A stretch of 64,000 nucleotides of DNA from positions 5,840-69,839 of the forward strand of contig JAGVXK010000018.1 of assembly GCA_018303825.1 (NCBI GenBank), in the 5' to 3' direction. Made by a program: the position numbers and the translations under genes. The notes under the pieces were generated by a model, which saw only the letters and a list, made by a program, of their open reading frames with translations, had not been told where the DNA came from and ran no database searches. Below are positions 34,841 to 63,728 of this stretch, piece by piece. Each line of letters starts with the position of its first letter. Position 1 is the stretch's first letter. Source of the stretch: Candidatus Pacearchaeota archaeon (GTDB taxonomy: Archaea > Nanobdellota > Nanobdellia > Pacearchaeales > GW2011-AR1).

Positions 34841-34985
34841 ATATCTTATAGATATCTCATATATTTAAGCTTTTCTGTGCTTATTCATCACCCGTTAACT
34901 TTACAGAACCTGAATTACGAAAGTTTTTAAATGAAGTAGGTTTTCACAACTCTAAGCACCTTAACAAAATAAAGATGTGGAATTT

Positions 34986-35058
34986 AGCCCTGTAGTCTAG
35001 CGGTCTAGGATTCGACCCTTTGGCGGTCGAGACCCCGGTTCGAATCCGGGCGGGGCTA
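34986..35058 (+). tRNA. tRNA-Gln (anticodon TTG)
   Basis: Acceptor AGCCCTG/CGGGGCT, anticodon stem CGACC/GGTCG with loop CTTTGGC, T-arm CCCGG-TTCGAAT-CCGGG. Confidence 0.85.
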
Positions 35059-35066
35059 TTCATAAA

Positions 35067-46685: not shown

Positions 46686-46776
46686 AGCCTCCAGAGGGGA
46701 TTGAACCCTCGACCCTCAGTTCGTTTGGTCTTTGCGGACGTACAAAACTGATGCTCTACCACTGAGCTATGGAGGC
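46686..46776 (-). tRNA. tRNA-Thr (anticodon TGT) with a 19-nt intron after position 37
   Basis: Acceptor GCCTCCA/TGGAGGC, D-arm GCTCAGTGGTAGAGC, anticodon stem TCAGT/ACTGA enclosing TTTGTA[CGTCCGCAAAGACCAAACG]A, T-arm GAGGG-TTCAATC-CCCTC. Confidence 0.8.
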
Positions 46777-46859
46777 ATAATAGAACCTTAGTTCTATTAT
46801 TTCTATAAAAGGCAAACGGTTAAAAAGCTTTTGTTTCTCTTAATTTTGCAGTTTATCAT

Positions 46860-46930
46860 GGCCTTATGGTTCAGTGGCAAAACACCTCTTTGACGTGGAG
46901 GGGTCCGCGGTTCGATTCCGCGTAAGGCCA
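46860..46930 (+). tRNA. tRNA-Val (anticodon GAC)
   Basis: Acceptor GGCCTTA/TAAGGCC, anticodon arm CCTCT-TTGACGT-GGAGG, T-arm CGCGG-TTCGATT-CCGCG. Confidence 0.85.
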
Positions 46931-47035
46931 TTTATTCTCTTTTTTCCTTTTTTGTTTTGTTATCATTCTAAAGTATATAATAAGATTTATATAATTGTAA
47001 TATATAGTTTGCATTGTATATATCAGAGGATAATT

Positions 47036-48266: not shown

Positions 48267-48401
48267 ATGAAGAAATATCTGCTTTTAATTGAAGATGAAA
48301 GCCTATGGGAAAGATTTAAAGAAATAATTGACCGAGATATAAATAGTGAAATAATGAATTTAATCAAAATCAAGATAAAAAATGGCAAGGAGAGGAAATG
48401 A
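48267..48401 (+). CDS. Small protein (44 aa), ATGA-coupled to the 611-aa ORF; possibly RHH-like
   Basis: Own translation: MKKYLLLIEDESLWERFKEIIDRDINSEIMNLIKIKIKNGKERK. Confidence 0.35.
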   Translation: MKKYLLLIEDESLWERFKEIIDRDINSEIMNLIKIKIKNGKERK

Positions 48402-50233: not shown

Positions 50234-53200
50234 TGGCCTTTAGAAAAGCCCAGGGAAAGCTAAGGTTCATTAGTGAAAGGACGATGGTCAATAAATTGTT
50301 GATGTTGATGTTAATTGTTATAATTGGATTGGTACTTGGAGCTAATTATGTGGGTGCGGATTATACTTCTTCATTCGCAGGATATGGCAGCAGCTATTCA
50401 AGCGCAAGTTATCAATACCAACCAAGCTTTCAGACTTACTATGGAAATGATGTGAATACTTATTGGCCCATATTAAATGATAAAGATGTCTGCAAAGCAA
50501 GGCAGGATATGCTTTTACAAGTATCACCTGCAGGATGCCAGCCAATGGTTGTGAGAAGCGATTTATTGGCTGATCAGAATGTGCCGGTATTTTGCCAGAT
50601 TGATGCACTGCAGGTTAATCCTTTGATTGACATAAAAGAAATCAAAAACATAAATTTCAGAGGAAATTATCCCAAAGAAGTTGCAGGAGTTGGATTTCAT
50701 CCAGCAAGGGCTGCATTGAATACAAGAGACAGGCTTCTAGGAAGTCCATTAATAAATAACATTGGATATGTGGTAGTTATCCTTAAACAAACTAAGAACG
50801 AGAGCTCATTGCCTAAATTCGTTAATCTGACTTTGACTGGAAAGTTAGAATATAATGCAGGAAATGCATATGGAATAGGCACAAATGAATTTTATCTTGA
50901 GCCTACAGATGATAATCAATGGGAAAATGCGAAGATCGCGAATAGTTTTTGGAATGGAAGATATTTCATAAGATTATATGATGTCGATGAAACTTCTGCT
51001 TTAGTCTCGATATATGATGGGGACAGGGAAATTTCTAAGACGAGAATAAAACTTGGAGAGACTTCAGCTCCAATGTATCTTCCTGGAAGTTACTGTTCTT
51101 TTGGTCTGACGACAACTTATACAGGGCTTGCACAGTCTGATAAAAAAGCCAGAATAGAGATAAGCGATGAAAAAGGAACAAATAATCTTGATGTTTATCA
51201 GGGAAGCGAGTTTTTGAATGGAAGATGCAGAGTGAGCGAGATATTAGTAGATTCACAGACAGGAAGCACGGGAAGTGTAAAGATTGCATGCGATAGTGAT
51301 TTGATAAAATTGGAAATGAGGCCAAATCTATATGTTGAGAATCTGCCGTATGGAAGAACAAGTTTCAATGACATAGGAGCGAATAAGCAGGAATGCAAAG
51401 TTGATTTCAACGATGAAAAGAGTTATAGAATAACAAGAGATGTGGTTAAGGAAGCCAGCGGTGATTCTTATAGTTCCTGGACTACTTTGGAGATTTACAG
51501 TAATGATAAAAAAGATTGGACAAGTAGTTTCAGCTTGGATGATGCAACTAAAGACAAGATAAGGAATGCACTTGCGAATGCATGTGATTTCAGAGATGAT
51601 AAATTCTTGACTTCTGATGGAAAAACAGTCAATGATGTTGCAGAGAAAGCGTTCAATGATGCAATTGATTCATATGAAGAAGTTGCGAAGGATTATACTT
51701 CTGAGAGACAGGCTGCTACAGAGGGAGTTGCCAGATATGGAGAACTGGCATTAAGAGCTGCTCTTGATTTGGTTCAAGAGGCAACTTCAAAGAATTACGC
51801 AAAGAAGGAAACAAAATCAAGGTTATTGAATTTGTTCATTAGTTTATATCCTGAGAGTGCAAAGTTATATCAGAGCCAGAGGGATGCACTATATCAATTA
51901 GATTCTAGTATCTCAACTAAATCTGTGAATGTCGATAATAAGTTCAGGACAATAAGACTTGTAAGCTTAAATAATCCTGAAAGCGCAAATGAAAAGGCGA
52001 AGGCTAAGTTTACTTATGGCGGCAGAATTCTTGAATTAGTTAAAGGAGAAGCTAAGCCATTAAAGACAAATGCAATGATTAATGTCACAAGCTTCGATGC
52101 TTTGCATGCAACTATAAGAACCAACTGCGTTACAAAGGATAATGGATATGAAATAAAGACTGAAAGCGGGAAGCCAGTCTATCAGTCTTCTATAACTCTC
52201 AGCCTTGGAGAAAGCGAGAATGTGTGCGGAGAGCCTCTTGTCTTCAAAGATACTGATTTGAAGAAAGTTGCTAAGATAAGAATCAGCCCTACTGCGTATG
52301 GCCCTGAAACAGAGACAAATATATCTGTCAAGATTGGAATTGAAAAGAGAGCAATACAATTGAGTCCTGAAAAGACAAAAGATATGATTCTTAATATAAA
52401 TAAGAGCATACAAAAATGGGAAAGCATTTCAAAGAGTTTAGTAAAGGTAGAAACAGGGTTGAAGGCAGCTTGTTTTGCAACTTCTGCTGTGCTGACTGTC
52501 AAGACTTTCCTTTATGGGATAGATGGAACTGCCACCGCAAGACAGAAAGTGATGACTGGAGATTATGGGTGGAACAAGAGATGCAACGATGCGATAACTA
52601 AGAAGTGGCTTGATGTAAATGCAAATGGTGGAGAATTTGAACAGGGAATAGACAAGAATGTTAATTATGGAAGCATAATACAATGCATAAATGATAATAC
52701 TGCATCAATTGAAAAGGATGTTCAAACTACGAAGAATGCTCTGGTAGATACAAATAAAGTTGTGAAGGTTGCTCAGGATAGCGCCACCACTAAGGGAATA
52801 TTAAATCAAGATTTGGCTACCAAGGCAATGATAGATAAAATAGGAGCAGACTGCAAGCAATTTATAGAATTGCTTCCTGCAGTTGTTAGAGATTCAAAGA
52901 CTACAATTTATCCAGTTACATTATCTCAATCTAGAGATATTTATGCGAATTGCCTGATGCTGAAACAGAATCCGAATGATCAGAATGCTCTTCTTTCTAT
53001 GAAATCATTTTCAGAAAATGCGAAAAATACAATGACAGATTATGAGAAATTTGCAAGGTCTCAGGCATCAAATGATATTCTCCCTATAAATACTGGAACT
53101 GGAACAGCATTGAAAGGGAAGTTCTACCCAATTGTAGGAAATACCATTGGAGAAATACCAGTAAGCGGGGCGAGCATACCAGCAGGAGCAACTCATGCAG

Positions 53201-56200
53201 TAAGATTAGATAATCCCGCAACTATAGAATATGATAATGGCATCTGGGGCAAAGTATCTATTGGAGCACCATTTATAGTTGTTGGAACAGAATTGAATGG
53301 GAAGTTGCGACCTCTCGATGTATTCAAGTATGAACCTAAGTTTGAAAATGGAAAAGTGACTTCTGCAGTTATTTCTCAGATACCAAGTGAGAGTTATCAG
53401 GGTTCTAGTGGTGCTAGTTTGTTTATGTCAAAAAATGGCTATACAGGATTTGAAGAATTCGGGCAAGGACTTTATGGAAATACTATAAGAGAACAGGACA
53501 GAGCAGTATTATATTTTATATCTGGGCCCGATAAGGATTTGCCAAGCCAGGTTCCATTTGATGTTAACAATGGATGGTATGTAAAGGTTCAGGCGAGTTC
53601 ATTTAGTCTTGGGAGCAATGCAGTAAAGAGTTATGATGCTTCTGGATTGCCTAAAGACTGGCAGATATGCAATGTTGGAAGCGATGGAATGATAGGAAGT
53701 AATGATGATTGCCAGGCATTTAATCAGGCTTCTCTTGGAGCTACTATTCTTGGATTAGATGCAAAAACTTCGCAGGATTTGGTGCAGAAGTCCCAAAAAG
53801 CAATTTTGGATGCTGCTTCTCAAAAGAATACAAATACAAAACAAGTGAGCATATTTGGGCAGCCAATGAGAGTTGATTTCCAGAATCCAATGGAGAATGT
53901 ACAATGCTCTAACTTTATGACTGCCGGAGATTGTAAATTATTATTCAATGTCTGCGACCCAGTTATATGTCCTGCGAGCAGATGCAATCTTGGAGGGGCT
54001 TATAGGGTAGCGAATGTTCAACAGACAGGAATTGTGGGCTCTGCATTATTGTGTTTGCCAAATGCAAGAGAAGGAATTCTTCTTCCTGTTTGCGTTTCGG
54101 GAATTAGAAATGGAATCGATGCTTATGTTTCTTTATTGAAACAACATAGAGATTGTTTACAGCAGAATTTAGACACTGGAGAATTAGTTGGAGTTTGCGA
54201 TGAAATACAATCTATTTATACTTGCGAGTTCTTCTGGAGACAGGTGGCTCCTATTGCTAGTATGTTATTGCCTAAATTGGTTGAAAATGTTTATTCTGGA
54301 GGACAGGGAACAGGTGTTAATGGGGGAGGAGAATATTTATTCGTTCCTCAAGCATGGGATAATGCAAAGAATAGCATGGACTACTTTACTAATTATTATG
54401 CGGAGAATACATTTAAAGCATTCCAAATAAGAAGTGTTGAAGAAGCAGGAACAGAAGTTTGCAGAGGATTTGTTTCTTTGAAAGCTCCAACATCTATAAA
54501 GACTTTATTAGAACCGGATAGTCCTCCTCAGTTTTATGCAAGATTTGATTCAACCACTTTCTCGACGGTAACTGTGCCTGCCACTGCACAGTATAAAGTA
54601 TTTTACTTTATCAATGCAGGAAATGATGCAGGAGTTTATTATTCAGTTTATTTGAAGAGTCCTCCTGAATCAGGATATTATTATTCAAATCCAACAATTC
54701 AGATAGCAAATGGATATATTTCTAAAGGACAAAGTTCGAGTCAGACTTTGGATAAGACTGCTCCTGAAGGATATAAAGAGCTATGTGTAAGAATAAATAA
54801 TGAAGAAGAATGCGGGTTCAAACAGGTTTCAACAGACTTCAGCGTAAATTATCTTAGAGACCAGTACGCAAAAGACCAGCTTACTAACACAAATATTCAA
54901 ACTCAGGCAGAATGTGTATCTGGAACATCTAGTCTTGCAGCTGTTGGGGCTAATTTGAACTTGCAGTCTGCCGCTCAGGAGGCGGCAATGCCTGATATTT
55001 CTCAGAGAGGGATAGTAAGAATATGTGCAACATTGAATCCTGGAGGTAGCACAGACCCTACAAGATATATTCCTGTTGGAATTTGCGGCGATGCTAATTT
55101 GAAGTGCTGGCTCGACAAGACAAGTGTAAACAATGCAATAACTGATGCTAATCTCGGAGTGAAGAATGCAACCTTACAAGAGTTAGAGCAAACGAATATT
55201 GATGCTCTTATTGCACAAGGAGAAATTCTAAATAATGAAGTGGCTGTTTCAAGCATAAAAGAAATAAATAACAGAAAAGATATTTTAAGGGCGAATTTAG
55301 ATTCTAATAAGAATATTATCAGCGATGCACAAGCCTTGGAATTGTCAATTAATGATTTGTATGGCAAGCTGGTATTGAATAATCATAAGGCATGGCTGTT
55401 GCTTATAAGGGCTGAGGTAAAAGCAATGGAAGCTGAATATTATATGAAGAATATAGCTACAAAGACATTACCTTTAAGCAGAGTCAGCAGCACAACAACC
55501 GCTGGAATAACACAAACACATAGCATAAGTTTTGCCCAGGATATAGATGCTGCAACAGGAATGGATGTCACAAGAATATTTATAGATAGAAACCCTGACA
55601 GTTATTATTATATCTATAATGATCCTGAAAGAGGAAATATATTATACACTAATAAAATAAGTGGACCAAATACTCAAGAAGATAATCAGGTTGGAACAGT
55701 AGACAGAAGCAATATAATACAAGTTTATGCGAGTTATGCAGGAGATACAGATTTAAGCGTAATAAATGGGCAGAGATTAACATTTGATAATTCTGGAATT
55801 CCGCAAGCATTAACAGTGAAAACAACTGCTCCTGCGGCGTCAGCAGCTGCAACAACTGCAAATGAATTAGTATTTACTTTCCAAGATGGCACAATTTCTT
55901 GGAACTTAGAATATAGATTTCACAATGGTAAATGGCAGGCTACAAATGGGGGTGTACTTACAACAATACCTAATCCTTTACCACAAAGTTATAGAGATGC
56001 GTTTACTGCTACCACTGTTGCAAGTATGGAAAAACTTTCTAAAGCAAGTTCGCTTCAGGAAGGATTGAAGATATTAATAGATAGAACATTGGCAAATAAT
56101 GAAGGAGGATGGTTTGCAAATACTGATTTACTTGCTGGCAAATTCGATTTGGATAGTAAGGGAGAGTTTACAAGTTCTTCTATTAGTGGGATTAATTCCA

Positions 56201-56388
56201 TTTATCGATATGGTTCGAATGGGTGGGAATATTATGCTTCAGGCACAAATCGTGTCTGGATTCCGGTAAAGGATTTAGTTATTTCTAAGGATAAGATGAA
56301 TCTTGTTTTTGACAGTGATAAGACTCTTGTTAATCAATTATCAAATCAAGATTTCTATGGTGGTGCGTTGATATTGTTTAGTTCTTAA
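50233..56388 (+). CDS. Giant surface protein (2051 aa), function unknown
   Basis: Uninterrupted 6.1-kb ORF in AT-rich DNA. N-terminal TM or signal MVNKLLMLMLIVIIGLVLGANYVGA. Cys-rich, hydrophobic core near 53900-54300. TAATG overlap with the upstream gene. Confidence 0.75.
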   Translation: MAFRKAQGKLRFISERTMVNKLLMLMLIVIIGLVLGANYVGADYTSSFAGYGSSYSSASYQYQPSFQTYYGNDVNTYWPILNDKDVCKARQDMLLQVSPAGCQPMVVRSDLLADQNVPVFCQIDALQVNPLIDIKEIKNINFRGNYPKEVAGVGFHPARAALNTRDRLLGSPLINNIGYVVVILKQTKNESSLPKFVNLTLTGKLEYNAGNAYGIGTNEFYLEPTDDNQWENAKIANSFWNGRYFIRLYDVDETSALVSIYDGDREISKTRIKLGETSAPMYLPGSYCSFGLTTTYTGLAQSDKKARIEISDEKGTNNLDVYQGSEFLNGRCRVSEILVDSQTGSTGSVKIACDSDLIKLEMRPNLYVENLPYGRTSFNDIGANKQECKVDFNDEKSYRITRDVVKEASGDSYSSWTTLEIYSNDKKDWTSSFSLDDATKDKIRNALANACDFRDDKFLTSDGKTVNDVAEKAFNDAIDSYEEVAKDYTSERQAATEGVARYGELALRAALDLVQEATSKNYAKKETKSRLLNLFISLYPESAKLYQSQRDALYQLDSSISTKSVNVDNKFRTIRLVSLNNPESANEKAKAKFTYGGRILELVKGEAKPLKTNAMINVTSFDALHATIRTNCVTKDNGYEIKTESGKPVYQSSITLSLGESENVCGEPLVFKDTDLKKVAKIRISPTAYGPETETNISVKIGIEKRAIQLSPEKTKDMILNINKSIQKWESISKSLVKVETGLKAACFATSAVLTVKTFLYGIDGTATARQKVMTGDYGWNKRCNDAITKKWLDVNANGGEFEQGIDKNVNYGSIIQCINDNTASIEKDVQTTKNALVDTNKVVKVAQDSATTKGILNQDLATKAMIDKIGADCKQFIELLPAVVRDSKTTIYPVTLSQSRDIYANCLMLKQNPNDQNALLSMKSFSENAKNTMTDYEKFARSQASNDILPINTGTGTALKGKFYPIVGNTIGEIPVSGASIPAGATHAVRLDNPATIEYDNGIWGKVSIGAPFIVVGTELNGKLRPLDVFKYEPKFENGKVTSAVISQIPSESYQGSSGASLFMSKNGYTGFEEFGQGLYGNTIREQDRAVLYFISGPDKDLPSQVPFDVNNGWYVKVQASSFSLGSNAVKSYDASGLPKDWQICNVGSDGMIGSNDDCQAFNQASLGATILGLDAKTSQDLVQKSQKAILDAASQKNTNTKQVSIFGQPMRVDFQNPMENVQCSNFMTAGDCKLLFNVCDPVICPASRCNLGGAYRVANVQQTGIVGSALLCLPNAREGILLPVCVSGIRNGIDAYVSLLKQHRDCLQQNLDTGELVGVCDEIQSIYTCEFFWRQVAPIASMLLPKLVENVYSGGQGTGVNGGGEYLFVPQAWDNAKNSMDYFTNYYAENTFKAFQIRSVEEAGTEVCRGFVSLKAPTSIKTLLEPDSPPQFYARFDSTTFSTVTVPATAQYKVFYFINAGNDAGVYYSVYLKSPPESGYYYSNPTIQIANGYISKGQSSSQTLDKTAPEGYKELCVRINNEEECGFKQVSTDFSVNYLRDQYAKDQLTNTNIQTQAECVSGTSSLAAVGANLNLQSAAQEAAMPDISQRGIVRICATLNPGGSTDPTRYIPVGICGDANLKCWLDKTSVNNAITDANLGVKNATLQELEQTNIDALIAQGEILNNEVAVSSIKEINNRKDILRANLDSNKNIISDAQALELSINDLYGKLVLNNHKAWLLLIRAEVKAMEAEYYMKNIATKTLPLSRVSSTTTAGITQTHSISFAQDIDAATGMDVTRIFIDRNPDSYYYIYNDPERGNILYTNKISGPNTQEDNQVGTVDRSNIIQVYASYAGDTDLSVINGQRLTFDNSGIPQALTVKTTAPAASAAATTANELVFTFQDGTISWNLEYRFHNGKWQATNGGVLTTIPNPLPQSYRDAFTATTVASMEKLSKASSLQEGLKILIDRTLANNEGGWFANTDLLAGKFDLDSKGEFTSSSISGINSIYRYGSNGWEYYASGTNRVWIPVKDLVISKDKMNLVFDSDKTLVNQLSNQDFYGGALILFSS

Positions 56389-56480
56389 TGATATTGTTGA
56401 ATATATTAAAAGTGTGAGATGCGGGGACTAAACCCTGCATTGGTTGGCATTTTAATGGGTTTGATTTTCTCTTGTGATAA

Positions 56481-56495
56481 GTAAGGTTTAAATAG
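56481..56495 (+). promoter_or_regulatory. BRE/TATA-like box GTAAGGTTTAAATAG
   Basis: About 27 nt upstream of the ATG at 56516. Confidence 0.5.
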
Positions 56496-56521
56496 CATAT
56501 GTATTATTTTTACATATGCTA
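56493..56521. promoter_or_regulatory. Perfect 11-bp inverted repeat TAGCATATGTA-n7-TACATATGCTA, candidate ArsR operator
   Basis: Read directly. Lies between the TATA-like box and the ArsR gene; the right arm contains the start codon. Confidence 0.55.
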
Positions 56522-56890
56522 CAAAGATACATATTAGAGCATGCTCATAAACATGGATTGTCTGAGAATGAGATTTATTTCACATATAAAATCTTTTTTG
56601 GCACGCTTGTTTCAGAGTCGAGATTAAGGATAATCAATCTTTTGAGAAGTGGGGAAAAGAATGTCTCAGAGATAATAAAAGAATTGAATATGAATCAATC
56701 AAATGTATCGCATGATCTTTTCAGGCTAAAAAAATGTGGTTTTGTACTCGTTGAGGCTAAAAAGCAATATAGATATTATAAGCTTAATGAAAAGACAATT
56801 AGACCACTTATGGCTTTGATAGATAAACACATGGCCGAATATTGCATCCACATATTCAGAGCAGACAAGGAGACTAAAAATGGAGAATAA
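56516..56890 (+). CDS. ArsR/SmtB-family winged-helix regulator
   Basis: RLRIINLLRSGEKNVSEIIKELNMNQSNVSHDLFRLKKCGFV. Confidence 0.8.
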   Translation: MLQRYILEHAHKHGLSENEIYFTYKIFFGTLVSESRLRIINLLRSGEKNVSEIIKELNMNQSNVSHDLFRLKKCGFVLVEAKKQYRYYKLNEKTIRPLMALIDKHMAEYCIHIFRADKETKNGE

Positions 56891-57371
56891 AAATGTTGGA
56901 TGGATGTTATTAGGAATATCTGTTGTAATAGGAGTATTTATCTTTTTATTCAATAGCACATTGATGGGGGCTGTAAAAAATGCCTGTTTTATACAGCACG
57001 GAGATTTCAAATCTTGCGAGATGTATGACAGTGTGAATTATCAGACTTATTTTGCTCTTGGTATCACGGGTATAATGGTAATTGTCAGTTTGTTTCTGAT
57101 ATTCTCGAAGTCGAACGAAAAGATAATAGTCAAGAAAGTAAAAGAGAAGAAGATTCAAAAAGAAGTCAATCTTTCATCTTTTAGACCTGAAGAAAAGCAA
57201 GTTTATAATCTTGTCAAAGAAAATGGTGCTATTTTTCAGGGAGATTTAATTGAAAAGACTGAATTTAGCAAAGCCAAAATGACAAGGATTGTTGACAAAC
57301 TTGAGGGCAGCGGTCTTGTGGAAAGAAAAAGAAGGGGCATGACGAATGTTGTCGTGCTAAAGGAAGATTAA
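56880..57371 (+). CDS. Membrane-anchored MarR/TrmB-like winged-helix protein
   Basis: Two N-terminal TM helices flanking CFIQHGDFKSCEMY. C-terminal EKQVYNLVKENGAIFQGDLIEKTEFSKAKMTRIVDKLEGSGLVERKRRG. Confidence 0.6.
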   Translation: MENKNVGWMLLGISVVIGVFIFLFNSTLMGAVKNACFIQHGDFKSCEMYDSVNYQTYFALGITGIMVIVSLFLIFSKSNEKIIVKKVKEKKIQKEVNLSSFRPEEKQVYNLVKENGAIFQGDLIEKTEFSKAKMTRIVDKLEGSGLVERKRRGMTNVVVLKED

Positions 57372-57386
57372 TAAGATGGAGAAATC

Positions 57387-57629
57387 ATGAAAGAAAAAGA
57401 AAGCAATATTGTCCTTGCAGTAGTGATTGTTTTAGTTATCTTGTTATTTTTTGGAGGATTTGGCATGATGGGTTTTTGGGGAGCAGGAATGATAAGTGGA
57501 TTTTTTGGTGGATTTGGGTTTATGTGGATATTTGGATGGATGATTACGATATTAATATTAGTGGCTCTAATCCTATTCATTTTGTGGTTAGTTAAACAGT
57601 TACAAGGAGGTAAAAAGAAAAATGGGTGA
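57387..57629 (+). CDS. Small Gly/Phe/Met-rich membrane protein
   Basis: GGFGMMGFWGAGMISGFFGGFGFMWIFGWMI. Confidence 0.45.
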   Translation: MKEKESNIVLAVVIVLVILLFFGGFGMMGFWGAGMISGFFGGFGFMWIFGWMITILILVALILFILWLVKQLQGGKKKNG

Positions 57630-57885
57630 TAAATTAGATGCGAAAAAGGCAGGATTAGCTTTGGCTATTGTAGCAGGTATTGCTTATATTGCCTGTGCGA
57701 TATTAGTTGCAGTTGCGCCGCTGGGAACAGTCAATGTGCTCGGGGCCTTATTTCATGGGATAGATATAAGCGAGATAGCAACTACACCAACTCTTGGAAG
57801 AACATTTTTGGGATTGATTGAGATATTTGTACTTGGTTATATTCTCGGCTGGTTGTTCGGAGTTATTTACAATAAAATAAAGTAG
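57622..57885 (+). CDS. Small membrane protein (DUF5676-like, from memory)
   Basis: 87 aa, two or three TM helices. ...AYIACAILVAVAPLGTVNVLGALFHGIDISEI. Confidence 0.4.
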   Translation: MGDKLDAKKAGLALAIVAGIAYIACAILVAVAPLGTVNVLGALFHGIDISEIATTPTLGRTFLGLIEIFVLGYILGWLFGVIYNKIK

Positions 57886-57929
57886 TTTTGCGAACATTTA
57901 TATTTGTTATTTTTTATATATTTGCAAAG

Positions 57930-58643
57930 ATGACAGAATTAAGTAATTTTTTTAATCCTTGGATGGTATTTAGCATGATATTTTTACTAATTTGGATTAT
58001 ATTTTTTGTTTTCGCTAAAAAATCGAGGAAAGAGATGTTTTTGACAAGCATTCTAACAGCTCCATTTGGTTTAACAGAGATTTTATTTGTTCCCGAATAT
58101 TGGAACCCTCCATCTTTATTCAATCTCGCAGCAAAAACACGATTTGATATAGAAAGCATAATATGGTGTTTTGCTGTCGGAGGAATTGCAGCAATTTTAT
58201 TTGAATCTATATTCAAAGTAAGACACATTAAAATGAAGGACAAAGAGAGGCATAAAACAAGGCATAAATGGCACTTATTTACTTTAATATTGCCAATTCC
58301 AGTATTTTTAATTTTATTTTTCACTACATCACTAAATCCTATCTATACTTCAAGCATTTCAATGCTTGCTGGTGCAATTGGCTCACTCTATTGCCGTCCT
58401 GATTTAAAGAGAAAAATACTTTTTGGAGGTTTGTTATTTTTAGTTTTGTACTTTATAGCTTTCTTTTTGCTCGTTTTATTTTATCCAGGAATAGTAGAAA
58501 GTGTCTGGAACTTAAATGCTATATCTGGAATTCTTGTTCTTGGAGTGCCGTTAGAAGAATTAATATTTGCATTTACTTTTGGCATGATGTGGAGCAGCGT
58601 TTATGAGCATATTAGATGGTATAAATTATTGAGTTACCATTAA
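57930..58643 (+). CDS. Polytopic membrane protein
   Basis: About 7 TM helices. VPLEELIFAFTFG weakly recalls the PxEE motif of lycopene-cyclase-domain proteins. ATG at 57930 preferred. Confidence 0.4.
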   Translation: MTELSNFFNPWMVFSMIFLLIWIIFFVFAKKSRKEMFLTSILTAPFGLTEILFVPEYWNPPSLFNLAAKTRFDIESIIWCFAVGGIAAILFESIFKVRHIKMKDKERHKTRHKWHLFTLILPIPVFLILFFTTSLNPIYTSSISMLAGAIGSLYCRPDLKRKILFGGLLFLVLYFIAFFLLVLFYPGIVESVWNLNAISGILVLGVPLEELIFAFTFGMMWSSVYEHIRWYKLLSYH

Positions 58644-58731
58644 ACTATTTGTGACTAATTTCTTCTTTTAAAATGTATGGTGGAACTAGTTCCGCAAAAG
58701 TGCATATATAATTCAATTTCTTGGAAAAGTC

Positions 58732-59454
58732 ATGGAACACGAAAAATATCATGCTGAAGAGCATGACGATATGAAAGGAGGAAAAAAGTCCAACACTGAG
58801 ACTACAGTCCAGTATGTTATAATTGCGGTGCTTGTGATCTTACTTATTTACAGTGGAGTAAAGATATACGGAGCGGGCAGTTCTAGCATATCAGGAAATG
58901 TCGCTATGGATTTAGGCACAGTTTCTGCTTTAGATGTATTGCCAAAGGGAACACCTGCTGTTTATGGAAAAGAGCTTGGAGTATCATATAATGATGTCTC
59001 TGTAAGCAATCCGCAATTAGCAGATGCTACAATGCAAAAACTGGCAAAATATGAGGATATGCAATTAAATAGCGCGCAAATGGAGAGATACATAAGAATT
59101 GGGAGCTCGATTGCATGTGAGTATTGTTGCGGTGCTCAAACACTTGTCTTTGAGAATGGAGAAAGAGCTTGTGGATGTGCTCATAGTTATGCTATGAGAG
59201 GATTAGCAAAATATTTGCTAACTAAGCATCCCGATATAAGTGATATAGAAATCCTAAACGAACTAGGGAAATGGAAAGTTTTGTTCTTCCCAGGAGTTCA
59301 CGAGCAAAAAGCTGAAGTTTTGAAAGCAAATGGAATTGACTACACAAATCAAACTGTAGGATATATCTATCTTGCCTCAAACATATACCGGGGCGCAGAA
59401 AATCAGGCAACTGCAAGTTCAAGCGGAGGTAGTCAGATGGTTGGCGGATGCTAA
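58732..59454 (+). CDS. TM-anchored extracytoplasmic protein with CxYCCG...CGCxH motif and C-terminal MVGGC
   Basis: His-rich N-terminus MEHEKYHAEEHDD, one TM helix, CEYCCGAQTLVFENGERACGCAHS. Ends SSSGGSQMVGGC*. Confidence 0.65.
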   Translation: MEHEKYHAEEHDDMKGGKKSNTETTVQYVIIAVLVILLIYSGVKIYGAGSSSISGNVAMDLGTVSALDVLPKGTPAVYGKELGVSYNDVSVSNPQLADATMQKLAKYEDMQLNSAQMERYIRIGSSIACEYCCGAQTLVFENGERACGCAHSYAMRGLAKYLLTKHPDISDIEILNELGKWKVLFFPGVHEQKAEVLKANGIDYTNQTVGYIYLASNIYRGAENQATASSSGGSQMVGGC

Positions 59455-59514
59455 TAGGGGCTTTTATTTTTTTATTTTTCCCTTAGCATACAATTAAATA
59501 AAACAAGAGAAAAA

Positions 59515-59763
59515 ATGGATTGCTGTAATACAAAACAAAACACAAAGAAAGAAAACAGAGAAGAAAACATGAAAGGAGGTAGGGACATGACAAAGATTAA
59601 CAAAAATGTTCTGCTGTGGATTATAATTGGAGCACTAGTGATAGCCACAATATTCCTGACATTTAAAGCTTCATCGATAGGTACAAGTTCCGCACAAGCG
59701 ACAGCGTCAGCTGCCAGAACCGTAGCATCAACTGCATCTAGTGGAATGGTCGGAGGTTGCTAA
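59515..59763 (+). CDS. Small TM-anchored protein ending in MVGGC
   Basis: MDCCNTKQ...MKGGRDMTKINKNVLLWIIIGALVIATIFLTF, Ser/Ala/Thr linker, ends ASSGMVGGC*. Alternative start at 59569. Confidence 0.6.
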   Translation: MDCCNTKQNTKKENREENMKGGRDMTKINKNVLLWIIIGALVIATIFLTFKASSIGTSSAQATASAARTVASTASSGMVGGC

Positions 59764-59770
59764 AATTAAT

Positions 59771-60022
59771 ATGGAAATAAGAAAAAGCACATTATTATGG
59801 ATTGCAATCGGAGTATTGTTTTTAGCAGTGCTTTTTTTGATGTATAAAGCATCAACTATCTCTGGAAACGCAGTTTCTAGTTCTGGAAAGCTAGATACAA
59901 GTAGTTGGTCAGAAAATGAAAAGATGAATTATGAGATGCATGGAACAATTCCTGCAAGACTGCAAGGAAAAGTAGCATCATCTAGTGCATCAAGCGGAGC
60001 GGGAATGGTCGGAGGATGCTAA
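59771..60022 (+). CDS. Small TM-anchored protein ending in MVGGC
   Basis: MEIRKSTLLWIAIGVLFLAVLFLMYKAS..., ends SSASSGAGMVGGC*. The track start at 59741 overlaps the previous gene in another frame and was not used. Confidence 0.6.
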   Translation: MEIRKSTLLWIAIGVLFLAVLFLMYKASTISGNAVSSSGKLDTSSWSENEKMNYEMHGTIPARLQGKVASSSASSGAGMVGGC

Positions 60023-60079
60023 CAAAATTTAAACTTTTTATTTTTATTTTTTAATTTAATATTGAGAATTAAACACAAA

Positions 60080-60637
60080 ATGATAAAGATGAACATACGA
60101 AATAAGCAAGATAAAAACTATAAATTATTTGGATTTTTAATTTTAATACTATTCGGGATAATCACAGTTATACCTGGTGTTATGGCTCATTGCCCTCTTT
60201 GCACTGCAGCTACGGTCATTGGTGTAGGGGTAACAAGATCACTAGGATGGGATGATTCTATTGTAGGAGTATTTATAGGAGCAATGATAGTCTCTTTAGC
60301 TTTATGGGTGAATAATCTGCTAAAAAAGAAAAATATTGGAGGAGGCAATGCCATTCTAAGAATAATTAGCATAGTATTGCTTACCATTGCTCTTACCTTT
60401 TTGAGCTTTTATTATGCAGGAATATTCGGTCCAGCTAACATTTATAGGATATTCGGTATGGAGAAGATTACTTTTGGTGCAATATCCGGAGGCGTCGTAA
60501 GCTTGGCTACTTTTTGGATTAGCAATGAAATAAAGAGAAAGAACAATGGAGATGTTTTGTTCAATTATCAGACTATGGCTATTACATTTAGTGCATTGAT
60601 ACTTAACGCTTTAATATTTTGGATGGTGTTCAGATGA
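60080..60637 (+). CDS. Polytopic membrane protein with CxxC at the first TM helix
   Basis: VMAHCPLCTAATVIGVGV. Five predicted TM helices. Confidence 0.55.
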   Translation: MIKMNIRNKQDKNYKLFGFLILILFGIITVIPGVMAHCPLCTAATVIGVGVTRSLGWDDSIVGVFIGAMIVSLALWVNNLLKKKNIGGGNAILRIISIVLLTIALTFLSFYYAGIFGPANIYRIFGMEKITFGAISGGVVSLATFWISNEIKRKNNGDVLFNYQTMAITFSALILNALIFWMVFR

Positions 60638-61131
60638 AAACTAAAAACTTCATTAAAATAATACTTAAGATAAAAGAAAAGAATGAACTAGATTTATCAG
60701 CAGGAGAAGATTTAAGCATAGCCTTAATGAATCTTGTAAGCCTGGAAGAGCATTCTTTCTTTAGTTATGTCAAAACAAAAGATGAAAAGTTTCTTGAGAT
60801 ACTTGAAACATGCAGAGAATTAAGAAAAAGACTGCTTGCTAAATTAGTCAACAAAGATGAGAGCGAGACATGGTGCATGAGCAAGCACTTACTTGCTTCC
60901 AGCATGAGGATGTATGAAATCGGGAACAGACTCTTACATGAAAATAATATTGAAGAAGCTAAAAAATTATATACGGATGCAGCAGAACTATATGCTCTAT
61001 TTTGGAAACTTAATTTTGATAAAAATATGAGCAAGAAAGATACAATAAAGAGTTATGTGAGCTATAAAGATAAAGAAAAGAAGAGTGTTTTCTCTGGAAT
61101 TAAAAAACTGTTGGAGTGTTGTAAAGAATGA
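60634..61131 (+). CDS. Soluble helical protein ending in a CC pair
   Basis: ATGA overlap with the upstream gene. ...ALMNLVSLEEHSFFSY... Ends KKLLECCKE*. Confidence 0.5.
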   Translation: MKTKNFIKIILKIKEKNELDLSAGEDLSIALMNLVSLEEHSFFSYVKTKDEKFLEILETCRELRKRLLAKLVNKDESETWCMSKHLLASSMRMYEIGNRLLHENNIEEAKKLYTDAAELYALFWKLNFDKNMSKKDTIKSYVSYKDKEKKSVFSGIKKLLECCKE

Positions 61132-61583
61132 AAGAACATCACTATAATTATTTGTGGGCTGGAATTATATTAATATCTATACTCGGAACTTTCTTTCTAA
61201 TTAAGATGACTTATGCCAATCCTCTCAATCTGCCAAATTATGCATTTACTAAACAGGCTATAAAGGAAGCTTATTCGTATGCAAAATTAAATGAAAGTGA
61301 ACTTGACGGATTGCCTTGCAATTGCGGATGTATGATTGACGTAGCAGGTCATAGCGATGGATTACATTCAAGAGGATTGATAGATTGCTTTATGCAGGGA
61401 GATATAAACAATGGAGGCAAATGGGATAGTCATGCAAGTGAATGCGGATTATGTTATGAAGATGCGCTTTATGCAAAAAATCTGTATGAACAGGGAAAAG
61501 CCAAAGAAGATATTAAGCAAGCATTAGAAGCAAAATATGTGGCACAGACAATAAGCAACAACACAGTTTATGGGACAAAATAA
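61128..61583 (+). CDS. TM-anchored PCYCGC-motif-family-like protein
   Basis: LPCNCGCMIDVAGHSDGLHSRGLIDCF...HASECGLCYEDA resembles PCYCGC-motif (lipo)proteins (PF13798, from memory). Confidence 0.6.
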   Translation: MKEHHYNYLWAGIILISILGTFFLIKMTYANPLNLPNYAFTKQAIKEAYSYAKLNESELDGLPCNCGCMIDVAGHSDGLHSRGLIDCFMQGDINNGGKWDSHASECGLCYEDALYAKNLYEQGKAKEDIKQALEAKYVAQTISNNTVYGTK

Positions 61584-61584
61584 A

Positions 61585-61785
61585 ATGAATCATAAAGAAA
61601 AACACAATCATGGTATTGGGCATATGATAAAAATGGCTTTAGCCTGCATTATACCTTTCGCAATTATCCTTATACTCCTGCTTTTTGGCGTATCAAGTAA
61701 ATGGACAACAATTTGGGCTATCGGACTCATGATATTTCTTCATGTCTTGATGATGAAAGATCATTTTAGAGGAGACCCAAAGTAA
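61585..61785 (+). CDS. DUF2933-like His-rich small membrane protein
   Basis: MNHKEKHNHGIGHMIKMALACIIPFAIILILLLFG...LMIFLHVLMMKDH. Confidence 0.55.
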   Translation: MNHKEKHNHGIGHMIKMALACIIPFAIILILLLFGVSSKWTTIWAIGLMIFLHVLMMKDHFRGDPK

Positions 61786-61788
61786 AAA

Positions 61789-62214
61789 ATGGAAATTAAG
61801 AAATCTATTGTGTATGGAATATTGTCTGGATTAGGAATACTTTTATTCTTCCTTGCTATTTTAACTACATTTAAAGGTTATGGAATTGCAGTATATGAAT
61901 TCAAAAGATTATGGTATTGGCTTATCCCTTTGGCAATAGGTTTTGGAACTCAGATTGGCTTATATTTCTCAATAAAACACGATGCCATTATGAAAGCAGG
62001 AGTTAAGGCATCTGGGACAGTTTCTGGAGGTTCTATGGTTGTTTGCTGTAGCCATTATCTATTAAGCATAATTCCTATAATTGGCGTAACAGGGCTAACA
62101 GAGTTTTTAATGGCTTATCAAAAAGGATTTTTTGCCATAGGAATTACTTCAAGTATAGCTGGAATTCTCTTGATGTTAAATCATAAAAGAAAGATGAAAG
62201 GAGGATTATGCTAA
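61789..62214 (+). CDS. Four-TM membrane protein with intramembrane SGGSMVVCC motif
   Basis: GTVSGGSMVVCCSHYLLSIIPIIG. The vicinal Cys pair recalls MerT/MerF-type transporters, by analogy only. Confidence 0.5.
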   Translation: MEIKKSIVYGILSGLGILLFFLAILTTFKGYGIAVYEFKRLWYWLIPLAIGFGTQIGLYFSIKHDAIMKAGVKASGTVSGGSMVVCCSHYLLSIIPIIGVTGLTEFLMAYQKGFFAIGITSSIAGILLMLNHKRKMKGGLC

Positions 62215-62505
62215 ATGGAAGAGAAAGAGACAATACATATCAATGGAAAAGTAATCGGCGTAATAGTTATTTTATTGCTTCTTGTATCAGGCACTTTTTG
62301 GATATTCATTCTTCAAAAACAAGCTCATACCTCGCCAAATACGGGCGGAAACAGCAATACTGGTTTGACAACTGCTCCAGCGGATGATAAATATAGTAAT
62401 TTACCTGAGAAATGCAGACCACCGGCAGGAACAGATATAACCCAATGGAAAGAACATTTAGGGCATCATGCGGAATTTCAAGAGTGTTTAAAATATTTCC
62501 CATAG
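62215..62505 (+). CDS. TM-anchored small protein with Cys/His C-terminal domain
   Basis: One TM helix, then ...EKCRPPAGTDITQWKEHLGHHAEFQECLKYFP. Confidence 0.45.
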   Translation: MEEKETIHINGKVIGVIVILLLLVSGTFWIFILQKQAHTSPNTGGNSNTGLTTAPADDKYSNLPEKCRPPAGTDITQWKEHLGHHAEFQECLKYFP

Positions 62506-62514
62506 AAATTTAAA

Positions 62515-62736
62515 ATGCATAAACTAAAAATAAAAATAACTGGCTTGTATTGCGCAAGATGTGCTGAACAAATCTCTAAAATGATGTATGAGAAATTCAA
62601 AATAAAAAGGATAAACTTAGAAATGCAAGACCATATAATGGTTATATCCTCAAATTCAAGTATATTGCGGGGCAGATTAAATAAAGAGATAGAAAAGATG
62701 GGTTACGGCCCGATTAGCTTTTTGAAAGTTGACTGA
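62515..62736 (+). CDS. Heavy-metal-associated (HMA) domain protein
   Basis: MHKLKIKITGLYCARCAEQISK: a CxxC in the position of GMTCxxC within a 73-aa beta-alpha-beta-beta-alpha-beta-sized protein. Confidence 0.65.
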   Translation: MHKLKIKITGLYCARCAEQISKMMYEKFKIKRINLEMQDHIMVISSNSSILRGRLNKEIEKMGYGPISFLKVD

Positions 62737-62955
62737 AAAAATTTCTATAAAAGAGTATTTTAGTGCCTTTAAAGAGTTAGTGATTAGCCCATTTATCAGT
62801 CAGTGTGAATATTGCAAAAAGAGATTAAAAAAGGCCAATGTATAGAAAGAGTTGTTTTAGTTTACTGGGCAAGAGTAAACAGAAAAAAATACTTTTGTAA
62901 TTTAAAGCATGCAGATTTATACGAAAAAAGTAAGGGCTTATTGGGGTACAGATAA
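62729..62955 (+). pseudogene. Frameshifted small Cys-motif ORF (TRASH/zf-FCS-like) closing the operon
   Basis: TTG at 62729: MTEKISIKEYFSAFKELVISPFISQCEYCKKRLKK, then a frame change at A-run 62827-62832 gives GQCIERVVLVYWARVNRKKYFCNLKHADLYEKSKGLLGYR*. Confidence 0.3.
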
Positions 62956-62965
62956 ACCAGCCGGA

Positions 62966-63049
62966 TGCGGGGACTAGGATTCGAACCTAGGAAGGCACTA
63001 AGCCATCAGGTCCTAAGCCTGACCCGTTAGACCGCTCCGGCATCCCCGC
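62966..63049 (-). tRNA. tRNA-Leu (anticodon TAG) with long variable arm
   Basis: Acceptor GCGGGGA/TCCCCGC, anticodon arm GTCAGG-CTTAGGA-CCTGAT, T-arm TAGG-TTCGAAT-CCTA. Confidence 0.8.
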
Positions 63050-63158
63050 ACACATATGCGGGGTTTAGATGTTATAAAAAGCTTTTCTTTATCAACGAGC
63101 TGTAAAGTTAACGACACCCATTAGATAGATTTTTATAGGCAGAAAGAAGGAATTTGAG

Positions 63159-63728
63159 ATGGCTAAAGGCAATAATCAAGATAGTGTTGTTTCTGATGAA
63201 GAGAATGAAAGAATAGCAGAATTAATTAGATATTCTGAGAATCTTGGATGTTATTTTGAAAAAAATTCTTTAGATTACGACACTATTAATTTTCTTGCTG
63301 TTGGAAAGGTAATTGCCTGCTTAAATCAATATCGGGGAAGAAATGGTGCGGATATTAGGACTATGCTACGCACAGCGGTATATAGGGGATTTATTGATGT
63401 TCATAGAAGAAGAAGTAGGGAAGTGAGCCTTGATGAAGTTGATTCTGATGGAAGAAAAAAATTTGATTTTGACGAGGAATCTCGTTTAGATCAAAGAAGG
63501 GATTCATATCAGAGAGATTTTCTTTTAGAAAATGTGATAAGGGAAGCGATGTCAAAATTACCTCAAAGGCATAGAACTATCTTAGAATTAAGATTTTATC
63601 AGGGAATGACTTATTCTGAAATTGCCAGACTATTAGGTAGGAAGCAGTCAACTATAGGAACAAATATCTATTATGGTATAAAAAATCTTAAGAGGATATT
63701 AGCTGGTAAAATTGATTTTAGAAGTTAA
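63159..63728 (+). CDS. Bacterial-type sigma-70/ECF-like protein (regions 2 and 4)
   Basis: Region-4-like LPQRHRTILELRFYQGMTYSEIARLLGRKQSTIGTNIYYGIKNLKRIL. Region-2-like RTAVYRGFIDVHRRRSRE. Confidence 0.6.
   Translation: MAKGNNQDSVVSDEENERIAELIRYSENLGCYFEKNSLDYDTINFLAVGKVIACLNQYRGRNGADIRTMLRTAVYRGFIDVHRRRSREVSLDEVDSDGRKKFDFDEESRLDQRRDSYQRDFLLENVIREAMSKLPQRHRTILELRFYQGMTYSEIARLLGRKQSTIGTNIYYGIKNLKRILAGKIDFRS

Follow-up and report, generated by a model that had tools for sequence, protein, structure and literature searches.

What does an archaeal cell gain from a tight cluster of small membrane proteins that carry cysteine, methionine and histidine motifs and are encoded without a recognizable pump, reductase or oxidase? 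This question is raised by a 6.5-kb stretch (positions 56481-62955) of a 64-kb piece of DNA, referred to here as the window, from a member of the Pacearchaeota (DPANN); the contigs that contain the window sequence derive from groundwater metagenomes of the Rifle aquifer. A preliminary description, made from the sequence alone, had interpreted the stretch, whose open reading frames (ORFs) we label g1 to g16, as an ArsR-led operon for the relay or sequestration of a thiophilic metal. We found that the conservation of motifs and gene order in other DPANN archaea supports a real, co-inherited unit, the core of which starts at g6 behind a promoter and an operator of its own. In our estimation, this unit has an even chance of being a module that captures and buffers Cu(I) at the outer face of the cytoplasmic membrane, with a link to the cytoplasmic face and dual control by ArsR (g1) and g2.

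The ORFs, 15 of them intact and one frameshifted, lie between 56,516 and 62,955 and all on the plus strand, in the layout that had been described, including the junctions ATGA at 60634 and 61128 and TAAATG at 62212-62217. Most intergenic gaps measure -34 to +15 nucleotides (nt); only the gaps that precede g6 (88 nt), follow g6 (60 nt), and follow g8 (39 nt) are larger. The latter two hold T-rich runs, TTTTATTTTTTTATTTTT after g6 (59455-59514) and TTTTTATTTTTATTTTTT after g8 (60023-60061), which may be archaeal terminators or attenuators that give g6-g8 an expression level other than that of g9-g16. Lengths below are given in amino acids (aa), and TM stands for transmembrane. The core proteins of the cassette and g11, which shares their stretch, are encoded as follows:

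58732-59454, plus strand: g6, 240 aa, the signature protein
59515-59763, plus strand: g7, 82 aa, a protein with an MVGGC tail
59741-60022, plus strand: g8, likewise an MVGGC-tail protein (probable start ATG at 59771)
60062-60637, plus strand: g9, a polytopic membrane protein (probable start ATG at 60080)
60619-61131, plus strand: g10, a soluble helical protein ending in LLECCKE (probable start ATG at 60634)
61128-61583, plus strand: g11, a membrane-anchored extracytoplasmic protein of the PCYCGC family (PCNCGC…C…H…CGLC)
61789-62214, plus strand: g13, 141 aa, a 4-TM protein with an invariant S..SM..CC.H at the start of TM3
62215-62505, plus strand: g14, a protein that spans the membrane once and has a small C-x(n)-HLGHH-x(n)-C domain on the outside

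Every Cys, Met or His motif quoted in the preliminary description was found in the translations. Neither Pfam nor NCBIfam returned a match for g3, g6, g7, g8, g9, g10, g13, or g14, and the same holds for two families of related loci introduced below, TM-ECCK and a Met-rich GKCCG membrane protein, in single-protein as well as whole-family scans. Judged by these searches, g6, g7/g8, g9, g10, g13, and g14 represent new families. NCBI labels g6 a hypothetical protein of Candidatus Pacearchaeota archaeon. The N-terminus of g6 is His-rich and cytoplasmic; after a single TM helix comes an all-alpha domain on the outside with an invariant CEYCCGA-x12-CGCAHSYAMRGLAKYLL, from which a Ser-rich linker leads to the C-terminal QMVGGC. 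The AlphaFold2 model shows the all-alpha ectodomain at an overall predicted local distance difference test (pLDDT) score of 64.9, with residues 80-225 mostly at 80-90. That of g13 shows four TM helices at a pLDDT of 74.3. Foldseek found no neighbour of either model in the PDB, and its best E values of 2.5 and 2.6 make a fold assignment impossible for both proteins; PDB profile sequence searches with g6, g9, and g13 gave nothing meaningful. Long relatives of g6 comprise a single FKBP fusion, which is uninformative. A common origin of g6 and the PCYCGC family was considered and rejected, as a profile-profile comparison aligned only the TM helices (probability 16%).

g7 and g8 are paralogues of g6 at the BLAST level and lack its Cys domain. 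In g7, a single TM helix follows the cytoplasmic N-terminal MDCC, and an Ala/Ser-rich linker then leads to the C-terminal GMVGGC. We also considered the MVGGC end as a ubiquitin-like GG-type sulfur carrier, as a substrate of CaaX-type processing, or as a sorting signal; these ideas were dropped because the proteins are single-pass with low-complexity linkers and no processing enzyme recurs in the locus census described below. g9 starts with an N-terminal signal or anchor, presents an invariant A-HCPLC-T at the outer face, and continues with four TM helices. A V-x-A motif precedes HCPLC and could be a signal-peptidase site, in which case cleavage would turn the His into the N-terminus. About one third of the top 120 g9-family matches, and 7 of 62 from related loci, carry a C-terminal rhodanese domain that, by the positive-inside pattern, would lie outside the cell. 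The slot of g10 is elsewhere taken by a 4-TM protein ending in (I/V)ECCK(K/N)W (TM-ECCK), with which it has only the ECCK tail in common. g11 matches PF13798 at 59.4 bits (cutoff 25, E 5e-16), and C.CGC is present in 19 of 20 orthologues; the function of the PCYCGC family is unknown (PMC13068155). The CC motif of g13 is predicted by the positive-inside rule to lie in the cytoplasmic leaflet, at the cytoplasmic end of TM3. The only name that any source gives to the g13 family is the label 'Cu+-exporting ATPase' at JGI for one 143-aa homologue (P0209), which is far too short for an ATPase, so that the label is probably an annotation artefact.

According to the positive-inside pattern, the C..HG..C loop of g2, the domain and tail of g6, the tails of g7 and g8, HCPLC of g9, g11, and g14 would face the outside. 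The His-rich N-termini of g6 and g12, MDCC of g7, and the whole of g10 with its ECCK tail would be located inside.

To what extent is this set of genes maintained? We scanned one genome per GTDB species for g6 relatives and found them in 248 species. A census was made of the best 80 loci, many of which lie on truncated contigs; their ORFs were called crudely and grouped by BLASTP single-linkage clustering, and cluster representatives were annotated, so that the counts per 80 loci are approximate. These loci are labelled Pace-, Woese-, Nano-, Micr- or Aenigmatarchaeota, save three with no label beyond 'archaeon' and one 'Methanosarcinales' bin. The g6 family comprises 2,268 matches in 90%-identity clusters, of which the top 120 are 67-100% identical and none is named, and a profile search of 1.84 billion representatives gave 290 clusters at 50% identity. 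None of the viral contigs carried g6, which leaves a virus-borne cassette unsupported.

The canonical gene order is g2, g6, one or two MVGGC-tail proteins, an optional DUF411 protein, g9, g10 or TM-ECCK, an optional PCYCGC protein, g13, and g14. Frequently found after g14 are g4, the Met-rich GKCCG membrane protein, a cupredoxin, ArsR, g3, an HMA protein, and a P-type ATPase. The number of loci, out of 80, in which each was found is as follows:

g2 67; g9 63; MVGGC-tail proteins 63; g13 52; g14 47
DUF411 39; DsbA-like 35; P-type ATPase 35; g10 28; TM-ECCK 27; ArsR 26; PCYCGC 20

The motifs are unusually well conserved. Among ORFs of g6 length, 71 of 85 end in xMVGGC-COOH, as do 78 small proteins; AHCPLC is present in 58 of 66 g9 proteins, M..CC.H in 51 of 52 g13 proteins, and the CC tail in 26 of 28 g10 and 25 of 27 TM-ECCK proteins, while the His motif of g14 is found in 21 of 48. 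Even among the 150 most divergent g6 representatives, C..CC is kept in 142. The preliminary description had named non-conserved motifs and a lack of co-occurrence in other genomes as grounds for abandoning its interpretation; given the conservation of motifs and gene order, we found neither. It is this conservation across dozens of species, and not the raw cysteine content, that provides the decisive signal. Six or seven families without a Pfam entry are thus kept in about 250 species with near-invariant Cys motifs and an almost invariant operator, a level of conservation which indicates an important function.

How is the cassette controlled? The following regulators and promoter elements were identified:

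56487-56494, plus strand: TATA-like box TTTAAATA, ~22-29 nt upstream of the ArsR ATG
56493-56521: perfect palindrome TAGCATATGTA-N7-TACATATGCTA, overlapping the ArsR start codon
56516-56890, plus strand: g1, 124 aa, ArsR/SmtB-type regulator
56880-57371, plus strand: g2, 163 aa, membrane-anchored winged helix-turn-helix regulator
58682-58693: palindromic operator GGAACTAGTTCC in the 88-nt gap upstream of g6
58704-58711, plus strand: TATA-like box ATATATAA, ~21-28 nt before the g6 ATG, promoter of the core cassette

The TATA-like box and the palindrome at the ArsR start had both been noted before. We found the palindrome to be unique in the window even when 3 mismatches were allowed, with 0 occurrences expected from shuffles. 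Its core, ATATGTA-N7-TACATAT, is kept upstream of the ArsR orthologues in L006 and L010 (L-numbers denote related loci that carry g6 relatives), where the TATA box is also kept in the same register. The palindrome is therefore read as the probable autoregulatory operator of ArsR, and the spacing between TATA box and ATG implies a leaderless or near-leaderless transcript. The match of g1 to HTH_5 (PF01022) scores 53.3 bits (cutoff 22, E 2.6e-14). Its candidate ligands are N-terminal His/Cys residues, Cys74, and His105-x4-Cys110-x-His112, positions that are kept in about 20 orthologues; together with the conserved palindrome, these residues give a hint, suggestive only, of metal sensing with release from the operator.

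g2 consists of two TM helices around the outside loop CFIQHGDFKSC, followed by a cytoplasmic DUF7343/MarR domain (DUF7343, PF24034, 43.6 bits against 27.6, E 2.7e-11; MarR, 30.7 against 24.6). It lies beside g6 in the 67 loci counted above, often in divergent orientation. The loop pattern C..HG..C is found in 41 of 83 family members, and the DNA-reading region is near-invariant across the family. A second conserved element stands upstream of g6: among 91 loci, the exact 12-mer GAAACTAGTTTC occurs in 57, mostly ~50 nt upstream of g6 and abutting the TATA box, at a chance expectation of ~0.002 per locus. A TTATATAA or TTAAATAA box is located at the equivalent place in most related loci. The window element GGAACTAGTTCC differs from the family-wide GAAACTAGTTTC by a change that is symmetric between the two half-sites, and the variant GGAAC..GTTCC is shared by the window, L011, L012, L015, and L016; with the variant operator in just 5-6 loci, there are too few to judge covariation with g2. 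Extra copies of GAAACTAGTTTC precede the Met-rich GKCCG membrane protein, g9, or DUF411. We propose g2 as a candidate binder of the g6 operator, since it constantly accompanies g6 and since the operator and the DNA-reading region of g2 are equally invariant.

These elements mean that, on sequence grounds, the core from g6 onward is transcribed from its own promoter and operator and is not simply ArsR-led, whereas the ArsR promoter probably drives g1-g5. ArsR was present in only 26 of the 80 loci, where it usually heads an ATPase module. With a separate g6 promoter and operator, and with g2 as the constant partner, the description of the stretch as an ArsR-led operon needs revising.

Which substrate does the cassette handle? 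The preliminary description had favoured a soft metal, naming Cu(I), Ag, Hg, or Cd, or else extracytoplasmic thiol chemistry. The metal reading gains support from the neighbourhood of the related loci and narrows towards Cu(I), given their DUF411 proteins, ATPases, CopZ-like proteins, and cupredoxins. The DUF411 protein (CopG family; Pfam 1.1e-24) occupies a fixed slot in the 39 loci that have it and carries C.CC in 38 of them. It alternates with the PCYCGC protein, as 38 loci have DUF411 alone, 19 have PCYCGC alone, and 1 has both; both proteins are N-terminally anchored and outward-facing. In the same way, g10 and TM-ECCK never co-occur (28 and 27 loci alone, 0 both). Such swapping of parts indicates a shared role. 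CopG proteins are periplasmic, function in copper resistance under anaerobic conditions, and bind a Cu4 cluster by way of CxCC and Met residues; their genes are linked to copA and cus (PMC7558416). The P-type ATPases of the 35 loci counted above lie within 10 kb, and 26 of 33 examined contain CPC, YN(x4)P, and MxxSS. This combination is diagnostic of Cu(I)/Ag(I) P1B pumps. Small HMA (CopZ-like) partners near the ATPases carry MHCASC, and all 14 tested neighbours of 118-175 aa belong to Cupredoxin_1.

In our proposed mechanism, the cassette would defend the cell against Cu(I), and possibly against other thiophilic metals, at and across the cytoplasmic membrane. Tethered sites on the outside, namely the [M/Q]VGGC tails of g6/g7/g8, CxxCC…CxCxH of g6, HCPLC of g9, the PCYCGC motif of g11, and the Cys/His residues of g14, would capture Cu(I) and hand it among themselves, so that the metal is buffered or immobilized and kept from entering or re-entering the cell. 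CC-x-H of g13, g9, MDCC (g7), ECCK (g10), and the His-rich ends of g6 and g12 would connect these outer sites with the metal pool of the cytoplasm and with the small CopZ-like protein g15. ArsR (g1) would sense cytoplasmic metal and bind the palindrome at the leaderless promoter of g1-g5, and g2 would sense an outside signal through its Cys/His loop and bind GGAACTAGTTCC next to the g6 TATA box. Gene layout, synteny, motif conservation, flanking repeats, operators, and the neighbourhood of copper genes are observed; from these, we infer the identity of the metal, its binding, the direction of its flow, and the pairing of regulators with operators; for the extracytoplasm-to-cytoplasm direction that had been put forward earlier, we found no supporting result.

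Several observations weigh against this copper-buffering model. The functional assignment is drawn wholly from gene neighbourhood and motif chemistry, and the locus counts behind it are approximate, as explained above. In the window itself, the cysteine content of the islet is only modestly raised (1.84% versus 1.31-1.36% in the remaining window), which makes the window on its own weak evidence; CC pairs are about eight-fold enriched, in small numbers (4 in 2,013 aa of the islet versus 4 in 15,370 aa). Pfam and tblastn detected no ATPase, CopG/DUF411, or cupredoxin in the window islet, which means that the connection to copper comes from related loci. Vicinal CC pairs are a more familiar feature of mercury and arsenic systems than of copper systems. 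The models of g6 and g13 are only moderate, and the pLDDT of ~52 in the Cys loop of g6 means that the site geometry cannot be read. Finally, the DsbA-like proteins of 35 loci, the multi-thioredoxin proteins of 8 loci, and the rhodanese fusions of g9 fit thiol-redox or sulfur chemistry equally well, and a cysteine desulfurase is encoded upstream in 16 of the 80 loci.

The latter genes lead to an explanation that we regard as unlikely, though it deserves consideration, namely an extracytoplasmic system for thiol-redox or sulfane-sulfur chemistry in which g9, g13, the DsbA-like proteins, and the Cys tails form a disulfide or persulfide relay. Such a relay would oxidize, reduce, or persulfidate cysteines at the cell surface, such as those of the giant Cys-rich proteins of DPANN archaea, with the copper proteins as clients or electron acceptors. 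Besides the rhodanese fusions and the DsbA/Thioredoxin_4 and multi-thioredoxin neighbours, the outside Cys pair of g2 could sense the redox state, NifS and IscU appear in connection with the 16 loci, and a module headed by a paralogue of g2 recurs that combines DUF302, a PGCxACG TM protein, DsbA, and a cupredoxin. However, neither Pfam nor PDB sequence and fold searches revealed any similarity of g9 or g13 to DsbB, VKOR, or CcdA/DsbD, and g9 has one CxxC and g13 one CC, compared to the two essential Cys pairs of those enzymes. Vicinal CC pairs and a single terminal Cys would also be poor disulfide relays. Moreover, the exchange with CopG in its slot and the linkage to CopA, CopZ, and cupredoxins indicate the metal itself, and Pfam detected no DsbA-like or rhodanese gene in the window islet.

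With respect to these neighbours, we made some further observations. In the 16 loci with the desulfurase (L034, L037, L073, L074, L082, L089 and others), a short ArsR-type regulator and a class-V aminotransferase (NifS/IscS-like) stand upstream of g2, and six of them encode an IscU-like protein elsewhere in the locus. The arrangement could be due to a common place in the chromosome, or copper stress and Fe-S assembly could be connected. The second module led by the g2 paralogue was seen in L010, L013, L029, L038, and L067 (e.g., L029:10251-14877); besides DUF302 and a cupredoxin, it encodes one or two DsbA-like proteins and a ~200-aa TM protein in which PGC(A/T)ACG lies within a helix, and it may be a separate thiol or copper unit under the same regulator family.

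The cupredoxins raise another possibility. The cassette might scavenge scarce copper and load it into neighbouring cupredoxins, i.e., serve copper acquisition or cuproprotein maturation. The frequency of Cupredoxin_1 neighbours, a second g6-type operator upstream of the GKCCG protein in three loci, and the suitability of tethered high-affinity tails for scavenging are in line with this idea, and a role in passing copper to cuproproteins has been proposed for CopG as well (PMC7558416). We nevertheless consider it very unlikely, since the window keeps the whole cassette without a cupredoxin, the cassette is linked to a CopA of the efflux type that comes with an ArsR repressor, and the Cys/Met-rich tails of the cupredoxin-like neighbours are more like those of resistance proteins than of electron carriers. 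Some of the Cupredoxin_1 neighbours end in Cys/Gly tails, e.g., SSCG..GGGCGCGGG (L029:14398-14877, L037:14420-14938, L065:14334-14855), a further type of flexible thiol tail in these neighbourhoods. The GKCCG protein itself is a 227-aa Met-rich membrane protein (MTGMMIGMTIGM…GKCCGVMG; CC in 19 of 19) encoded at L026:13812-14542, L027:14007-14738, and L030:13324-14055. A separate copy of the GAAACTAGTTTC operator stands upstream of its gene, and in L026 and L027 the next ORF is of cupredoxin size. The window has no such protein.

The preliminary description had also stressed that the system lacks a pump. Indeed, tblastn of five neighbourhood ATPases against the 64 kb gave no matches, confirming that the window has no P1B ATPase; as a defining trait, the claim does not hold, because the P-type ATPases near the cassettes of relatives make the missing pump a peculiarity of the window. 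A further possibility is a new kind of metal translocation machine that would do without ATP hydrolysis: the single-pass paralogues g6, g7, and g8, with cytoplasmic CC or His ends and flexible outside tails, would act together with g9 and g13 to relay Cu(I) between thiolates through the membrane and on to an outside sink, with g2 controlling the system by reading the outside metal. As part of that scheme, the sink would be a PCYCGC/CopG copper cluster or the sulfane sulfur of rhodanese-fused forms, which would trap copper sulfide. We judge this version unlikely.

The remaining genes of the cluster are accessory or of less constant occurrence:

57387-57629, plus strand: g3, 80 aa, small Gly/Met-rich membrane protein, in 34 of 80 loci
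57622-57885, plus strand: g4, 87 aa, DUF5676 protein with two TM helices (Pfam 8.9e-21), in 32 of 80 loci
57888-58643, plus strand: g5, membrane protein with a Lycopene_cyc domain (Pfam 2.5e-18), in 12-13 of 80 loci
61570-61785, plus strand: g12, 71 aa, two TM helices, His-rich N-terminus, H..MM..H motif
62515-62736, plus strand: g15, small CopZ-like HMA protein with GLYCARC at residues 10-16 (CxxC in the first loop)
62729-62955, plus strand: g16, frameshifted TRASH/FCS-like ORF

g3 and g5 had been counted among the components of the system. Elsewhere, g3 travels with the ArsR/HMA/ATPase module, g5 (probable true start ATG at 57930) is rare, and the pairing of g4 with g5 is confined to the clade of the window; we therefore no longer count g3 and g5 as core. 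Of the family assignments made earlier, those to ArsR and PCYCGC exceed the Pfam cutoffs, and those of g15 and g12 fall short. g15 scores 18.1 bits against HMA, under the cutoff of 24.8 (E 0.0035), yet matches by BLASTP (8e-8) a 71-aa protein of L005 with a recorded PF00403 match. g12 resembles DUF2933 (PF11666), yet the window protein has no match at E<=0.1; in a mixed scan of 133 proteins that included 16 of the g12 family, 2 of the scanned proteins match DUF2933 at 7e-7, and the pattern H..MM is kept in 15 of 15 family members. The frameshift in g16 is identical in two independent assemblies, in agreement with its earlier description as a frameshifted ORF. One A added to the A5 run near 62815 restores 75 aa that read CEYC-x26-FCNLKH. 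Intact homologues were found in 8 of the 80 loci; g16 gave a weak zf-FLZ match (E 0.028), and an intact relative had no Pfam match.

The presence of an ArsR-type g1 and a TRASH-like g16 in one islet calls to mind mercury resistance, as in archaeal mer loci a regulator of the ArsR type is found together with a TRASH-domain metallochaperone. Accordingly, one could think of an uptake relay for Hg(II), or for Cd, Ag, or Au, in which outside cysteines pass the metal to intramembrane and cytoplasmic Cys pairs, to be detoxified or stored in the cytoplasm, as in the chain MerP-MerT-MerA. Cys pairs are indeed present at both membrane faces and in TM3 of g13, and L008 encodes a Pfam MerT protein 6 kb away. 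Even so, this explanation is highly improbable: MerA, MerB, and MerP were not found in the window or in any surveyed neighbourhood, no component matches the MerT or MerC families of Pfam, uptake without a reductase would be harmful, and the recurrent neighbours are copper genes rather than mercury genes. That MerA, CDF proteins, and multicopper oxidases are missing, as stated before, agrees with the Pfam-annotated calls of ~12.5-28.6 kb and 31-64 kb, the remaining window not having been scanned. We thus return to the capture and buffering of Cu(I) as the model that we carry forward.

How did the cassette reach its position in this chromosome? The preliminary description did not mention that the cluster forms an islet flanked by tRNA sequence:

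56418-56430, plus strand: left direct repeat GATGCGGGGACTA, a copy of the tRNA-Leu 3' end and proposed left border of the islet
62963-63050, minus strand: tRNA-Leu(UAG), whose 3'-terminal 13 nt (62964-62976) form the right direct repeat

GATGCGGGGACTA has two exact copies in the window against 0.01 expected. Its left copy lies 30 nt past the stop of an upstream 2,051-aa ORF, in the short gap before ArsR. Base composition does not distinguish the islet from its surroundings, and its flanks consist of ordinary chromosomal genes (SRP54, ribosomal proteins, GINS, TFIIB, LSM). A sister island in L006 extends from ArsR to a small HMA-like ORF and lies between tRNA-Val(CAC) and a 34/35-nt copy of the 5' half of that tRNA. 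In L010 (3659-3900), a tRNA-Met is followed by two tandem units of ~45 nt that end in the tRNA 3' end (…CCACCCCCGCTATT) just before ArsR; these look like stacked att remnants. No integrase was found in the window islet or the L006 island, and Pfam detected no recombinase family among the islet proteins or annotated flanks. Two metagenome scans, for the empty tRNA-Leu site and for the tRNA itself, failed to recover even the source contig and are therefore uninformative. Many other genomes have the cassette beside NifS, with no tRNA in the vicinity. We read these arrangements as an ancient DPANN module which, in the clade of the window, would have moved as an integrase-less, att-flanked islet.

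A few features in and around the islets were also recorded. The sister island, with a cassette whose small proteins have a cysteine at the C-terminus, encodes an ICMT/PEMT-family membrane methyltransferase (L006:3646-4260, L007:3537-4187), noted only there. Directly upstream of the window islet (48398-56388, plus strand), ORFs of 611 and 2,051 aa have no Pfam match, and the longer one, with an N-terminal TM helix and ~34 cysteines, probably encodes a surface protein. Past tRNA-Leu, 63159-63728 (plus strand) encodes a 189-aa protein with a Sigma70_r4_2 match (3.4e-13) and a weak ECF-sigma match; this bacterial-type sigma-70 region 4 protein, of a family unusual for an archaeal genome, adjoins TFIIB (from 63729, minus strand). 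ARAGORN reported a 91-nt 'tRNA-???' with a two-base anticodon at 46686-46776 (minus strand), near tRNA-Val at 46859-46931 (plus strand), and a similar call in L033 (20183-20273); it could be an intron-containing or otherwise atypical archaeal tRNA. A DDE transposase (IS66/IS240) and a LAGLIDADG-like ORF at ~33842-34672 (minus strand), near tRNA-Gln at 34985-35059, stand among housekeeping genes and are the sole mobile-element genes in the annotated part of the window.

How, then, does the cassette compare with known systems? Searches of Pfam, NCBIfam, the PDB, and the literature (PCYCGC, DUF5676, MVGGC, DPANN and copper) revealed no described system of this composition, as the preliminary description had surmised. 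In terms of mobility, it resembles integrase-less, att-flanked tRNA islands, which have a tRNA at one end and a partial tRNA repeat at the other (13 bp in the window, 34/35 nt in L006), and differs from them in that it is not on viral contigs and that neither the islet nor L006 has an integrase. With the Mer relay it shares small membrane proteins with cysteines outside, within, and at the cytoplasmic face of the membrane, without sequence similarity or family membership, as Pfam identified no MerT, MerC, or Pyr_redox among the islet proteins or annotated flanks. Related loci recall Scs/Dsb systems, since membrane and extracytoplasmic Cys proteins occur there with DsbA-like partners near copper genes; in contrast to these systems, g9 and g13 show no homology to DsbD, ScsB, CcdA, DsbB, or VKOR, and the window islet has no thioredoxin-fold gene. 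The cop operon of CopA and CopZ is matched by an ArsR-type regulator with a palindrome and a small HMA protein in the window and by an ATPase in relatives, but there is no ATPase in the 64 kb, and the core is on a separate promoter with a different operator.

We thus give even credence to the view that the cassette is a form of extracytoplasmic copper handling, built almost entirely of uncharacterized families. To our knowledge, no extracytoplasmic copper systems such as Cus or CueO have been reported for DPANN archaea, which have tiny genomes and a mostly uncharted membrane biology. If the copper reading is true, it would show how these single-membrane, mostly anaerobic cells cope with Cu(I), and it would bring in tethered C-terminal MVGGC ends, a membrane-bound winged helix-turn-helix sensor with a defined operator, and a rhodanese-fused HCPLC protein as new elements. 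Finally, in comparison with CopG and its copA- and cusCBA-linked setting, the corresponding slot of the window is taken by a PCYCGC protein, and g6, the MVGGC tails, g9, g13, and g14 are without counterpart in bacterial cop/cus systems. The DUF411 proteins of related cassettes are nonetheless membrane-anchored and outward-facing like g11, with CxCC and adjacent Met residues, and copper handling by the cassette would provide the orphan PCYCGC family with its first functional context, as a stand-in for CopG.

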